Positions 55,759 to 64,000 of a stretch of DNA of 64,000 bases are shown here, in pieces. The notes beneath the pieces were generated by a model that was not told the DNA's origin, did no database searches, and was given only the letters and a program-made list of their open reading frames with translations. Positions within the stretch are counted from its first letter, which is position 1. Every line of letters starts with the position of its first letter. The stretch is from Candidatus Omnitrophota bacterium (GTDB lineage: Bacteria > Omnitrophota > Gorgyraeia > Gygaellales > Profunditerraquicolaceae): contig JAQTQJ010000008.1 of the NCBI GenBank assembly GCA_028712255.1, positions 7,773-71,772 of the forward strand. The letters run 5' to 3'. A program made the position numbers and the translations under genes.

Positions 55759-55801
55759 GGGGCTGTAGCTCAGTTGGGAGAGCGCCTCGTTCGCAACGAG
55801 A
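55759..55801 (+). pseudogene. tRNA-Ala-like 5' half (acceptor 5' strand, D arm, anticodon stem-loop with CGC) lacking T arm and 3' acceptor strand
   Basis: GGGGCTG TA GCTC AGTTGGGA GAGC G CCTCG TTCGCAA CGAG matches bacterial tRNA-Ala 5' half incl. G3; downstream 600 nt contain no GGTTCGA-type T arm or CAGCCCC. Confidence 0.6.
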
Positions 55802-56212
55802 ACCAGGCAATCTTTATAACATATTGAAATTGTTGTAAATACGTACTCATTGAATAACTTAGGTAGTATTTTTGTTTTATTAGTTTTTAATGGTTTTTAA
55901 TCAATTTTAACCTTAGGTAGACACTATTTAGACACTACTTTAAGGATGCATTAGGGATCAAAGATAGTTGAATAAGAAATTGCTTATTTTTATTTTTGAG
56001 ATAGAATTGCTTTAGAAGCAAAGACAATTTGGTTCACTAGCCATGCCTTAAAGAGGACATAGAACCTCTAACTGTGAAGTAAGGTAAGCTGCATCACTCC
56101 CCGAAAGGGAGGCGGGAAATGCAGTCTTATCGGATTTACTTCACAGTTGCCGGTGGGAATATGCGCCCGCTTTTTGTTGGGAGTAAGATTCAGGGAATAA
56201 GCAAAGGAGATA

Positions 56213-56611
56213 ATGAAGAAGATAATCGTTTTGTTGGTATTGGTATCATTGGTTAGTGGTTGTGCATCTATACCAAGGGGTAAAATCGGGAATAGTAGAA
56301 TATATAATGCTTCTTACGATAAAGTATGGGAAGTAACGCTTAAGGCTACCGAAGGTGATATTTTAGAAGCTAGAAAAGAGAACGGATTTATTTCTTTAGC
56401 TAATCACGATCCCTATCATCCTTTCAAGTATGTTAATTTCTCTTTAGGGATAGTAGCTTTTAGATCCATCCATATGTTTGTTTCAAAAAAAGATGAAGAT
56501 CATACTGAGGTGGAGATTGATATAAAAGTTATGGGTTCATATTCAAAAGGAGTTTTGGAAAAAGAATATTTAGATAAAATTGAAACTGTATTAAATGAAC
56601 AAAGTAAATAA
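56213..56611 (+). CDS. lipoprotein, paralog family A
   Basis: 132 aa; lipobox LVSGC; shares YxxVWxxxxKAT..GDIL..E..G.IS and LEKEYLDKI motifs with ORF 60255. Confidence 0.65.
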   Translation: MKKIIVLLVLVSLVSGCASIPRGKIGNSRIYNASYDKVWEVTLKATEGDILEARKENGFISLANHDPYHPFKYVNFSLGIVAFRSIHMFVSKKDEDHTEVEIDIKVMGSYSKGVLEKEYLDKIETVLNEQSK

Positions 56612-56647
56612 AAAGCAATTAATAGTTGTTTGGAATAAGGAGGGGTT

Positions 56648-57109
56648 ATGAGGATAATCATCGCCTTCGTAATAATAGCGACTCAAGTCTTTTTTTATAA
56701 AGCTTGCTTTTCTGATATAGTGATATTAGAAGATAAAACTTTGTTTGAGGGAGAACAGATTTCAGGTAATAAGTTTAAGGTTGATGGAGGGTTTGTAATA
56801 TTTTCGAATCCTTTATGGAAAATAGTTAGTATAGAAAAAAGGATGCCAACAGATAATGAAAAGAAAAGCCTTATTGTATTCAAGGCGTCAGATTATGACA
56901 TTATATTTAATGAAAGAGGAGAATATTCTGCCCCATTGACATCATTTGAGAAGAATGTTGGTAAAAGAGTTCAGGCAGTATTTGATACATACCCAAGTTT
57001 ATCTGATAAAGCTTGTATAGAAATGGTTGCCAAGGAGTTTAAAATCGCCCCTACTATAATAGACCAAATCTTCTTAAAGGCAGCATTGAAAACAGGAGGC
57101 AAGCTATGA
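56648..57109 (+). CDS. hypothetical secreted/membrane-anchored protein
   Basis: 153 aa; N-terminal hydrophobic segment; stop overlaps next start (ATGA). Confidence 0.5.
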   Translation: MRIIIAFVIIATQVFFYKACFSDIVILEDKTLFEGEQISGNKFKVDGGFVIFSNPLWKIVSIEKRMPTDNEKKSLIVFKASDYDIIFNERGEYSAPLTSFEKNVGKRVQAVFDTYPSLSDKACIEMVAKEFKIAPTIIDQIFLKAALKTGGKL

Positions 57110-57609
57110 AAAAATGCCCTTATTGTGCAGAAGAGATACAGGATGGGGCAATTAAATGTAAACATTGTAGGGAGTTTTTAGAGAAAGTCAAGGCTACAGA
57201 ACGGATTCCAACTGGTAAGTTTTGCCCTTTATGTTCACAAGCCTATGCTTTTGAAGTAAAAAATTGTCCTAAGTGCAATACGATATTAGAAGAAGAATTA
57301 CAAGATCAAGAAGTTGAAAAAGATACAATCAGTTTATCTAAAATAGAGGAAAGCGGATGTGCTCCAGCAGTTATTTCTCTTATAATTCCTGGTACAGGAC
57401 AGATGATAAAGGGACAGGTGGGAAGAGGGATAGTTTACTTGGTATCAGCAATTGGTTTGGGAGCTATTACATGGGGTGTTCTCGCTGTTGTCGTGGGTAT
57501 ATTTAGTTGCATAGATGCAGCCACTCCCGTTTATAAATGCCCAAAATGTAAGTCAATTATTGATAAAGATGCCTTGGTTTGTAAATATTGCCAGGCTAAA
57601 TTTAGATAA
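57106..57609 (+). CDS. membrane protein with three zinc-ribbon motifs flanking a TM2-like two-helix domain
   Basis: 167 aa; CPYC..CKHC, CPLC..CPKC, CPKC..CKYC; central IISLIIPGTGQMIKGQVGRGIVYLVSAIGLGAITWGVLAVVVGIF. Confidence 0.6.
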   Translation: MKKCPYCAEEIQDGAIKCKHCREFLEKVKATERIPTGKFCPLCSQAYAFEVKNCPKCNTILEEELQDQEVEKDTISLSKIEESGCAPAVISLIIPGTGQMIKGQVGRGIVYLVSAIGLGAITWGVLAVVVGIFSCIDAATPVYKCPKCKSIIDKDALVCKYCQAKFR

Positions 57610-57666
57610 ATAAGATTTAAGTTGTATTAAAATATGGGGTACACTGAGTATATTGAGGCGAGGAAA

Positions 57667-62306: not shown

Positions 62307-62495
62307 GTGGATAAAATGTTAACTCCAATTAAAGCAATACGAAAGTGGTGTCTTAGTTGTCAAGAATCTTGTTCTCTAGTACGGTATTGTGATGATACTG
62401 AATGTCCTTTATTTCCGTATCGTATGGGTAATAATCCAAAGAGGAAAGGCATAGGTAGAAAAAAATCAAATCCTACACAAGAAACCAATACTTGA
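62307..62495 (+). CDS. small Cys-rich (zinc-binding) phage-type protein
   Basis: 62 aa; CLSC..C..C..C pattern, basic tail; preceded by TAATAATACTC iterons. Confidence 0.45.
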   Translation: MDKMLTPIKAIRKWCLSCQESCSLVRYCDDTECPLFPYRMGNNPKRKGIGRKKSNPTQETNT

Positions 62496-62607
62496 GTTGA
62501 TAATTTTGAATGGAAGATTGCTTATAAGTAAAAGCATGCCATTAAAATACTTATTTAAAAAATGCTTAGTTGAGTTGGGTAAAATAGGGAATAGGAATTT
62601 TATTCTT

Positions 62608-62790
62608 ATGGATAAACGACTTTTAAATATAACAGAGCTATCAGAGTATTTACGTTTGACTAAAGGCACTCTTTATGTATGGGTGTGCCATAAGAAAATT
62701 CCTTATTTAAAGATCGGGAGTTCGCTAAGGTTTGATTTAACTCAAATTGACAACTGGCTTAAAGGGAGAAGGGTCGCAGAAATGACTTGA
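62608..62790 (+). CDS. excisionase-family HTH (HTH_17) protein, Xis-like
   Basis: LLNITELSEYLRLTKGTLYVWVCHKKIPYLKIGSSLRFDLTQIDNWL; Met at 62608 preferred over track start 62497. Confidence 0.6.
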   Translation: MDKRLLNITELSEYLRLTKGTLYVWVCHKKIPYLKIGSSLRFDLTQIDNWLKGRRVAEMT

Positions 62791-62817
62791 CAAACTGAAT
62801 AAACTATACTAAAGTAT

Positions 62818-63003
62818 ATGAAGGATATGGGAAAGAGATATTTCATAAGAGACTTAGAGAAGATACTTCAGGTAAGCCGTAGGACTTATTTCTATTGGGA
62901 GCAAACCGGAAAAGTGCCTAAGCCCAAGAGGACTACTATGGGTAATTATCGTTATTGGACTAAAGAAGAGATTAACAAACTAAAGAAGCTGATAGAGGGA
63001 TAA
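62818..63003 (+). CDS. small HTH DNA-binding protein (AlpA/Xis-like), immediately upstream of int
   Basis: 61 aa; ILQVSRRTYFYWEQTGKVPKPKR..YWTKEEIN. Confidence 0.5.
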   Translation: MKDMGKRYFIRDLEKILQVSRRTYFYWEQTGKVPKPKRTTMGNYRYWTKEEINKLKKLIEG

Positions 63004-63004
63004 A

Positions 63005-64000
63005 ATGGGAGTTATTCTTAAAAGAGATAATTGGTATGTAGATTACTATTTTAACGGAAGAAGAAAAAGAGAGAAAATCGGCACTAGCAAAAAGCTGGCT
63101 GAAATTGTGCTCAAGAAGAGAAAAGTTGCTATAGCTGAAGGTAAGTTCCTAGATATTAAGAAAGAGCAGAAAGTAAGGTTTGATGAATTTGCCGATGAGT
63201 ATTTAGTGGTGCATTGCAAATCTAATAACAAGTCGTGGTTTAAATCTGATTATTTTAACCTTAAGAATCTAAAAGCTTATTTCGGTAATAAATACCTTCA
63301 CGAGATAACCCCGAAAGACATTGAGCAATACAAAGCAGAGAGGATTAAAGAAGTTAAAAAGCAAAAGACGGAAGACAAAGAGGAGCAGTTTATATCTCAT
63401 GCAACAGTAAATAGGGCGTTAAACTGCCTTAGTTCTTTGTATAATCGTGCTATTGAATGGGGTAAAGCAACAGATAACCCCATGAGTAAAGTGAAGCTTT
63501 TTAAGGTGCCTGATAAGCGAGTTCGTTTCCTTGAGAAAGAAGAAATAGACAAGCTCTTATCTCATTGCTGCGAGCATCTAAAGCCAATAGTTATTGTTGC
63601 CTTACATACTGGTATGCGTAAGGGTGAGATCCTGGGGCTTAAATGGCACGATATAGATATTAAAAGAAATATAATCCACCTATACGATACCAAGAACGGA
63701 GAAAAGAGAGAAGTGCCTATGAACGAAGTTGTGCAGAAGACCGTCATAGGCGTTCTTAAAAACCCAGAAAGCCAATATGTCTTCTGTAATAAAGATAATA
63801 AACCTTATGGGAATGTCAGAAAATCATTCTTTACAGCTCTTAAAAAGGCGGGTATAATTAACTTTCGCTTCCACGATTTAAGACATACCTTTGCTTCTCA
63901 GCTTGTTATGTCAGGAGTTGATTTAAATACTGTTAGAGAGCTTCTGGGGCATAAATCCATTGAAATGACCCTTAGGTATAGCCATCTATCTCCAGACCAT
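63005..64000 (+). CDS. int: tyrosine recombinase / phage integrase (3' end beyond window)
   Basis: 332 aa in window; N-terminal SAM-like domain, catalytic region with R (HTGMRKGE), HDLRHTFAS, LLGH motifs; catalytic Tyr not reached. Confidence 0.85.
   Translation, partial: MGVILKRDNWYVDYYFNGRRKREKIGTSKKLAEIVLKKRKVAIAEGKFLDIKKEQKVRFDEFADEYLVVHCKSNNKSWFKSDYFNLKNLKAYFGNKYLHEITPKDIEQYKAERIKEVKKQKTEDKEEQFISHATVNRALNCLSSLYNRAIEWGKATDNPMSKVKLFKVPDKRVRFLEKEEIDKLLSHCCEHLKPIVIVALHTGMRKGEILGLKWHDIDIKRNIIHLYDTKNGEKREVPMNEVVQKTVIGVLKNPESQYVFCNKDNKPYGNVRKSFFTALKKAGIINFRFHDLRHTFASQLVMSGVDLNTVRELLGHKSIEMTLRYSHLSPDH

Follow-up and report, generated by a model that had tools for sequence, protein, structure and literature searches.

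In the classical arrangement, an element that integrates into a transfer RNA (tRNA) gene carries the part of that gene running from the crossover to the 3' end; what is displaced is the 3' fragment of the host gene, and the promoter of the tRNA stays in place. The anticodon loop is reportedly among the crossover positions in the classification of tRNA-targeting elements that Williams drew up in 2002. Exchange with the 5' part of such a gene is also known but is described as "considerably less frequent" than with the 3' part, and the passage on this point cites Zhao & Williams 2002 and later studies for the 5' cases, several of which, judging by their titles, are archaeal proviruses or plasmids (PMC6563490). 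In the tRNA-dependent lysogeny of actinobacteriophages, the common core spans about 10 bp, no rebuilding of the tRNA takes place, and the phage bears a complementing tRNA gene (Guerrero-Bustamante & Hatfull, 2024, PMC10865867). Here, we analyze a stretch of 64,000 nt (hereafter the window, to which all coordinates refer) from contig JAQTQJ010000008.1 of a Candidatus Omnitrophota metagenome-assembled genome (MAG), whose right end lies within an element of about 8.4 kb (55801 to ~64123). This element was very probably put by its own tyrosine integrase into an Omnitrophota tRNA-Ala(CGC) gene, in reversed polarity and with the tRNA rebuilt.

With classical tRNA-targeting elements, it shares a tyrosine integrase, an attachment (att) core within a tRNA gene, a crossover probably located in the anticodon loop and a symmetric stem around it, as well as candidate arm-type sites on both sides, Xis-type helix-turn-helix (HTH) genes next to the integrase gene (int) and, as seen in its relatives, a restored target. 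Unlike them, it would carry the 5' end of the tRNA gene up to the crossover, the displaced fragment is a 5' one, and the rebuilt tRNA would lie downstream of int, without its native promoter. In the mechanism that we propose, the attP site of the free element would comprise, in this order, the 3' end of int (including an arm-type site ~94 nt 5' of the tRNA start), tRNA nt 1 to ~38-42, and a P' arm with an arm-type site at +159. Strand exchange would take place in or at the 7-nt anticodon loop, between the arms of the stem, as at classical anticodon-loop sites. The left junction (attL, 55759-55800) would thus retain the original 5' half of the host gene, still with its native promoter but as a dead end. 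At the right junction (attR), immediately after the int stop and about 125 nt outside the window, the 5' half brought by the element would be joined to the 3' half of the host gene, and a complete tRNA-Ala(CGC) would in this way be rebuilt 5' of the Memo/AMMECR1 gene of the host. Likely directionality factors are the HTH_17 and MerR-HTH proteins encoded upstream of int.

The left junction is marked by half of a tRNA gene. The 42 nt at 55759-55800 (+ strand), GGGGCTGTAGCTCAGTTGGGAGAGCGCCTCGTTCGCAACGAG, are pan-bacterial tRNA-Ala(CGC) sequence: they are identical to the 5' half of intact tRNA-Ala(CGC) genes in at least 120 genomes from many phyla, and a comparison with the intact gene of a related genome gives 42 identical positions out of 42, followed by a collapse of identity past position 42. 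The 5' strand of the anticodon stem lies at 55785-55789, the loop TTCGCAA at 55790-55796 with the anticodon at 55792-55794, and 4 nt of the 3' stem strand follow. The Rfam tRNA model aligns to 55759-55815 with its acceptor 5' strand, D arm and anticodon arm, without the T arm, and at 23.3 bits stays under its gathering score of 29; apart from this match, the Rfam search, which covered 54-64 kb at E<=1, returned just one chance match to a small RNA. ARAGORN predicted zero tRNA genes in the whole window, and no T-arm plus 3' acceptor motif was found anywhere in it with up to 3 mismatches allowed. The preliminary description of this DNA, made by a model from the letters and a list of open reading frames (ORFs), had already reported a tRNA-Ala 5' half with a CGC anticodon and no T arm or 3' acceptor strand after it. 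Both statements hold, as does the outcome of the tRNA scan that it had proposed. It had left two readings side by side, namely a tRNA split by the element or a fragment representing the left att core, and the second is borne out by the 5'-half repeats and the int-then-tRNA geometry of related loci described below. From its sequence and from these comparisons, the 42-nt block (tRNA positions 1-42) is most likely the core of attL.

A promoter-like element of the host, TTGCTA-N17-TAAATT, is readable 5' of the fragment at 55710..55738 (+ strand). The block TTGC(T/G)(A/C)-N17-TAAATT is also present 5' of intact tRNA-Ala(CGC) genes in empty-site relatives (loci L044, L070, and L021). Since the element in the window scores under the threshold in a consensus scan, it is best called a putative promoter of the native tRNA.

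At the other end of the element, the integrase gene occupies 63005..64000 (+ strand), i.e., the first 332 of 372 codons, and runs off the window edge with its stop predicted near 64123. The product matches at 100% the 372-amino-acid NCBI protein MDD5108876.1 (P0001) of a Candidatus Omnitrophica MAG. The catalytic domain PF00589 is recognized in P0001 with E=4e-38 (131 bits). In an alignment of related integrases (A1), R205, H290, R293, and H316 are invariant and Y325 is at least 90% conserved, and all five lie within the residues encoded in the window (1-332). The tyrosine integrase reading toward the right edge that was first proposed is hence confirmed. The proposed xis-int-att order with att just past the window is supported as well, the tRNA of relatives adjoining the int stop. 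A search of the IMG/VR database with this single integrase as query returned no close relative.

Evidence for the reversed polarity comes from occupied loci elsewhere. A metagenome scan with the integrase gave 33 loci (designated here by L numbers). The loci with enough sequence downstream of int were surveyed; 20 of them (19 from the scan, plus L126), whose integrases are 57-89% identical to that of the window, have an intact tRNA on the same strand that starts between -10 and +17 nt from the int stop. Targets are tRNA-Ala(CGC) in the closest relatives, followed by Lys-CTT and Arg-CCT, and a more distant locus, L153 (integrase 48% identical), has a same-strand tRNA-Leu(TAA) near the end of int. 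In three close relatives, L122, L123, and L127 (84-85% identical), the tRNA starts 5 nt past the int stop. L126 (82% identical) displays the whole arrangement: a pilin/PilZ locus, a tRNA-Ala 5' fragment (1593-1630), a 9.5-kb element ending in Rep_O-like, HTH_17, and integrase genes, and an intact tRNA-Ala(CGC) (11086-11161) that shares its first 10 nt with the end of int and is followed by Memo/AMMECR1 and RsmE genes. Both ends are visible in four loci, L126, L146, L152, and L157, where the direct repeat starts at nt 1 of the tRNA (at nt 2 in L126) and ends at nt 38, the last base of the anticodon loop; L152 and L157 are remnants of 2-2.8 kb with a truncated int. In L140, L147, and L160, tRNA identity ends at positions 38-41. 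Because the elements of relatives supply the 5' half next to int, an intact tRNA is to be expected right after the int stop here as well, which makes a lasting disruption of the tRNA unlikely.

The free form of such an element is also available. L160 is an IMG/VR contig of 14,874 bp whose 127-bp terminal overlap identifies it as a circle. Its integrase is 53% identical to that of the window, and int is followed, after 8 nt, by a tRNA 5' half (CAT anticodon) that ends after the anticodon loop, and then by sequence resembling the left arm of integrated elements. L160 is thus a free attP form and shows directly that elements with such an integrase carry the 5' half only. It encodes a major head protein, a large terminase, and a primase, and this gene content indicates that the integration module travels between types of element. 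Downstream of its attP, at 11080-13000, L160 also has a serine recombinase/invertase-like gene and a second, short ORF resembling tyrosine integrases.

Unoccupied sites provide the complementary picture. Several Omnitrophota MAGs with the same tRNA share the pilus locus of the window (L021 is 75% identical to it over 2.2 kb). In L021 and L031, this pilin locus is followed by an intact tRNA-Ala(CGC) and a fused Memo/AMMECR1 gene, with no integrase there; in L021, the RsmE gene comes next. A tRNA-Ala(CGC) directly followed by Memo/AMMECR1 is found in at least 10 Omnitrophota loci. The 120 tRNA-Ala(CGC) genome loci listed contain no close relative of the integrase, the single match being 28% identical (L048). 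The order pilin locus-tRNA-Ala(CGC)-Memo/AMMECR1 is therefore that of the unoccupied target, and the alignment to an empty site that the preliminary description had suggested as a check is provided by L021 and L031, in which the intact tRNA joins the pilin locus to Memo/AMMECR1. Separately, L021 appears to hold two tandem copies of tRNA-Ala(CGC) at 3100-3364, with a masked run of N between them.

This gene order bears on the right junction of the element in the window. The integrase, MDD5108876.1, is followed in the accession series by MDD5108877.1, which is an AmmeMemoRadiSam system protein B (Memo/AMMECR1) from a contig of equal length (78,930 bp) and has no ORF in the window; to the left of the element, the numbering of accessions and locus tags keeps strictly to the order of the genes. 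The first protein-coding gene past int is thus the one that follows the tRNA in empty sites, leaving room only for a non-protein gene between the two. There is, accordingly, strong indirect support for an attR tRNA at about 64124-64200.

The anatomy of the predicted att site can be followed further on both sides of the core. The sequence past the loop in the window (55801..55960, + strand) aligns with the left arms of L126, L152, L157, and L160 (alignment A2), including the block ..TAAC..TTGAAATTGTTGTAA.., and is taken as the left arm of the element, i.e., the P' arm of attP. It contains a candidate arm-type integrase-binding site, TAGACAC-TATT-TAGACAC, at 55918..55935 (+ strand), 159 nt from the start of the tRNA fragment. 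The corresponding double heptad, T[G/A]GACAC-N4-T[G/A]GACAC, has this single occurrence on the two strands of the 64-kb window. It is found at +159 in L126 and at +158 in L152, and again at -94 from the intact tRNA in L126, L127, L136, L146, and L152, this time inside the int ORF, where it encodes a conserved M-D-T-x-W-T. Elsewhere in the clade, other motifs occur, yet both arms match within an element, with GCAGGAAAT present twice in L140 and GGTGACA twice in L160; such co-variation of the arms within each element is the signature expected of arm-type integrase sites. Since the MDTLWT of P0001 occupies residues 344-349, the right arm of the element in the window probably has its site about 35-50 nt past the window edge.

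Several points weigh against this interpretation. The right junction lies outside the window, and we infer the intact tRNA and the attL/attR repeat of this particular element rather than observe them. In the window, tRNA-like identity reaches position 42, 4 nt beyond the loop, whereas it stops at position 38 in relatives. In L140 and L147, int is followed by the tRNA 5' half only, and then by other DNA, so that a rebuilt tRNA right after int is usual, not universal. Finally, no conserved canonical promoter is found for the rebuilt tRNA. Integration would have cut this tRNA off from its native promoter, which would now drive transcription of the leftover fragment toward the element; the rebuilt tRNA is thus probably transcribed from the element, either by read-through from int or from a promoter within the 3'-terminal part of this gene. 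A consensus scan returned a sigma-70-like match, TGGAC[A/T]-17-NA[T/A]AAT, overlapping the arm site in only 5 of the 20 relatives, two of which (L127 and L152) share the WTLGDNN codons of the window integrase, which is weak evidence for a promoter here. A conserved block just 5' of the tRNA, TTGAAAATAAA..GTTGTATAA, was considered as a promoter and rejected, as it corresponds to the C-terminal FENKxVV* codons of int and its spacing is unfit for sigma-70.

As to the two exceptions, in L140 the 5' half is followed by a second xis-like gene and a 456-amino-acid membrane protein gene (2884-4821), and in L147 by unrelated genes (4660 onward); these right sides may be junctions with other inserted DNA, or truncations of the tRNA. 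A tandem array ending in a second integrase was rejected for L147, where the 364-amino-acid ORF in question is unrelated, and was not upheld for L140, which looks like a junction with a different element.

Among the other explanations, the one that fares best, and which we nonetheless consider unlikely, is a true gene disruption, with a short shared core and a tRNA-Ala(CGC) inactivated for as long as the element is integrated, as in tRNA-dependent lysogeny or regulated gene integrity. The tRNA-Ala(CGC) should be dispensable given a UGC isoacceptor, as generally expected from wobble decoding. The window, which contains no intact tRNA, would fit such a disruption, and so would L140 and L147; moreover, tRNA-inactivating systems do exist, and they resemble the present case in leaving a non-functional piece of tRNA at one junction after integration (PMC10865867). 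The differences are nevertheless several. The shared block is 38-42 nt rather than about 10 bp long, relatives rebuild the tRNA, with a complete copy abutting int in 20 of them, and the element has no tRNA gene of its own. In the source contig, furthermore, the protein encoded next to int is that of the gene found after the tRNA in empty sites. The split tRNA of the preliminary description, if meant in a functional sense, is therefore most likely wrong, as the elements of relatives bring their own 5' half adjoining int.

We judge it very unlikely that the element, although of the same origin, is now a decayed and immobile remnant, with the tRNA fragment as a fossil scar. In some relatives, decayed elements have indeed accumulated at the locus: L152 and L157 are remnants, and the attL fragment of L126 is preceded, at 1560-1592, by ..TTTGAAAATAAAGTAGTTGTATAG, the last codons (FENKVVV*) of an integrase from the same clade. 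These codons are thus the stump of an older element, pointing to repeated use and decay of the site. In contrast, the integrase of this element is full length with conserved catalytic residues, the accessory HTH genes are intact, and the arm site and the attL core are unmutated. In addition, a Logan contig from another read set (SRR22315508), matched via a 213-amino-acid protein, is 100% identical to the element over 1.7 kb. From these features, the integrated element is predicted to be mobile. An artefact or another tRNA oddity, i.e., a mis-assembly of metagenomic reads at a tRNA conserved across genomes, as might be feared of a MAG contig, or else a split or intron-containing tRNA gene, is hardly credible, since a junction of this type, with a homologous element side and an arm site at a matching offset, recurs in independent assemblies (L126, L152, and L157), the break falls at the canonical site of anticodon-loop crossover, what is inserted is an entire int/xis element and not an intron, and the window contains no 3' half.

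Insertion into tRNA-Ala(CGC) with replacement of its 5' half thus being favored, its polarity can be compared with that of other integrases. Classical, 3'-replacing integration does not describe these loci, in which the displaced fragment is a 5' half and int is followed, in relatives, by nt 1 of a same-strand tRNA. The 5'-replacing mode does: in the window, the int-distal end bears a 5' half as attL, and the circular L160 and the four two-ended relatives fit it as well. The ends of the identity blocks, at the anticodon loop or within 4 nt of it, point to a crossover at this sublocation. As a control, 80 IMG/VR loci with distant integrases (30-43% identical, apart from L160) were inspected. 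About 25 of these 80 have a tRNA within ~200 nt downstream of int, always on the opposite strand and with the tRNA 3' end facing int, although many are copies of one prophage and only ~6-7 cases are independent. Because the controls all show the opposite-strand arrangement, same-strand abutment is a property of the clade and not an artefact of the method. One member of the clade, L150 (53% identical), has the classical polarity, with int facing the 3' end of a tRNA-Thr(CGT) (4338-5470), which indicates that the polarity flip happened within the clade.

These elements share their reversed polarity with the 5' cases mentioned in PMC6563490. What is added is a whole Omnitrophota integrase clade (57-89% identity, plus the 53% circular element) acting on Ala-CGC, Lys-CTT, and Arg-CCT, in which tRNA nt 1 is adjacent to the int stop or overlapped by it, and the int ORF contains one of the arm sites. 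It is a new, clade-wide bacterial example of a known but rare recombination with the 5' part of a tRNA gene, and not a new mechanism.

With the exception of Leu-TAA and of a CAT anticodon, the targets of reversed polarity are mostly isoacceptors with C34 (Ala-CGC, Lys-CTT, and Arg-CCT). Isoacceptors with U34 can usually back up those with C34. This preference may be due to chance, or may reflect tolerance of an altered expression of the tRNA.

In composition, the DNA from 55801 onward is foreign to the rest of the window. Its GC content (55801-64000) is 0.340, versus 0.386 for 1-55758, where the lowest 8.2-kb window has 0.362 (standard deviation 0.013), and its tetranucleotide distance from this core is 0.0206, versus a maximum of 0.0122 for core windows. 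This windowed comparison bears out the AT-richer composition past 55 kb that had been noticed by eye. Past the P' arm and 5' of the first ORF, 56070..56180 (+ strand) holds an imperfect long hairpin followed by a terminator-like stem-loop with a T run (56152-56180); the fold of 56040-56185 has a free energy of -53.2 kcal/mol (z = -3.2). This hairpin has no match in Rfam and is not conserved among related elements. Possible roles are those of a small RNA or of a block to read-through from the host tRNA promoter.

The ORFs that follow are all on the + strand and fall into a variable cargo (56213..62124), as judged from Pfam and PHROGs scans and from paralogy, and conserved accessory genes of the recombination module (62307..63003), whose homologues lie directly 5' of int in most related loci. 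The cargo begins with a lipoprotein carrying a lipoprotein signal (56213-56611), a Zn-ribbon/membrane protein (57106-57609), and a second lipoprotein (57634-58074). It continues with a weakly Rep_O-like protein (58867-59658), another Zn-ribbon/membrane protein (59694-59975), a third lipoprotein (60255-60755), and two ORFs without assignment (61111-61752 and 61864-62124). The lipoproteins and zinc-ribbon proteins first listed for the element are therefore indeed present (lipoprotein signal at 56213; Zn-ribbons at 57106 and 59694). The lipoproteins at 56213-56611 and 60255-60755 are distant paralogues (24-26% identity) with a common C-terminal motif, EKEYLDKI, and no family match. As for the lambda-O-like replication protein of the preliminary description, it has a match to PHROG 678 ("replication initiation O-like", E=4.9e-6), but its similarity to Pfam Phage_rep_O (PF04492) is weak, with 21.7 bits below a cut-off of 28.7 (E=2.9e-4); L126 has a 265-amino-acid protein with a Phage_rep_O match near its int. 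A PHROGs scan of ten proteins of the element gave no match to virion structural, packaging, or lysis genes. The element is best described as a small integrative element that may encode a Rep_O-like initiator, and it could be an integrative plasmid or a satellite.

The accessory genes encode a 62-amino-acid Cys-rich protein (62307-62495), an HTH_17 excisionase-type protein (PF12728, 43.4 bits with a cut-off of 27; 62497-62790, with a true start that is probably internal), and a MerR-type HTH protein recognized by Pfam (62818-63003). Of the two HTH_17/Xis-like proteins originally suggested, one therefore belongs to this family and the other is of the MerR type. Only these three proteins and the integrase are common to related elements, the cargo being almost wholly different. 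The module recalls the xis-int-att order of lambda in having accessory HTH genes, int directed toward a terminal att, and repeats in both arms. It differs from lambda by its HTH_17 and MerR-type Xis candidates, its tRNA target, its lack of structural and lysis genes among the proteins scanned, and a Rep_O similarity under the Pfam threshold. Cargo adjoining the pilin locus had been part of the first reading of this element and still is; the reversed polarity had not been mentioned there.

Two features of the neighboring host DNA deserve mention. The pilin locus holds tandem, near-identical genes for 130-amino-acid pilins (53292-53684 and 53751-54143), which differ by 2 residues and have duplicated upstream sequence, and L021 does likewise. 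Farther left, a 63-amino-acid HTH_17 protein of the excisionase family (45973-46164) is 46% identical to that of the element; its gene lies directly 5' of a 515-amino-acid PilM/N-like gene and looks like that of a host regulator. A second mobile element, suspected at 44-50 kb from low GC and this HTH_17 gene, was rejected, as the gene is located inside the type IV pilus operon.

More tentatively, and with some doubt on our part, one may propose that the clade centered on Omnitrophota has flipped the polarity of its target in such a way that the element, and not the host, supplies the tRNA 5' half together with all upstream transcription signals. A candidate promoter would overlap the arm site in the int ORF, and the host tRNA promoter would be redirected into the co-directional genes of the element. 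If true, expression of the tRNA would be tied to the int operon and that of the element to the host tRNA promoter, and the preference for redundant C34 isoacceptors (Ala-CGC, Lys-CUU, and Arg-CCU) could be the price of this arrangement.

At the level of annotation, these data explain an apparently broken tRNA gene as an attachment scar, and island finders that seek only displaced 3' tRNA fragments may miss elements of this kind. The boundaries and att anatomy are now defined for a family of small integrative elements in the Omnitrophota, a phylum without cultured, genetically tractable members, and an integration tool for these bacteria could be built on the predicted attP and attB. Across the clade, the 3'-replacement "rule" is inverted, and, together with the lineage of L150, which is classical at 53% identity, it offers a natural pair for studying what sets polarity at a symmetric anticodon-stem core.

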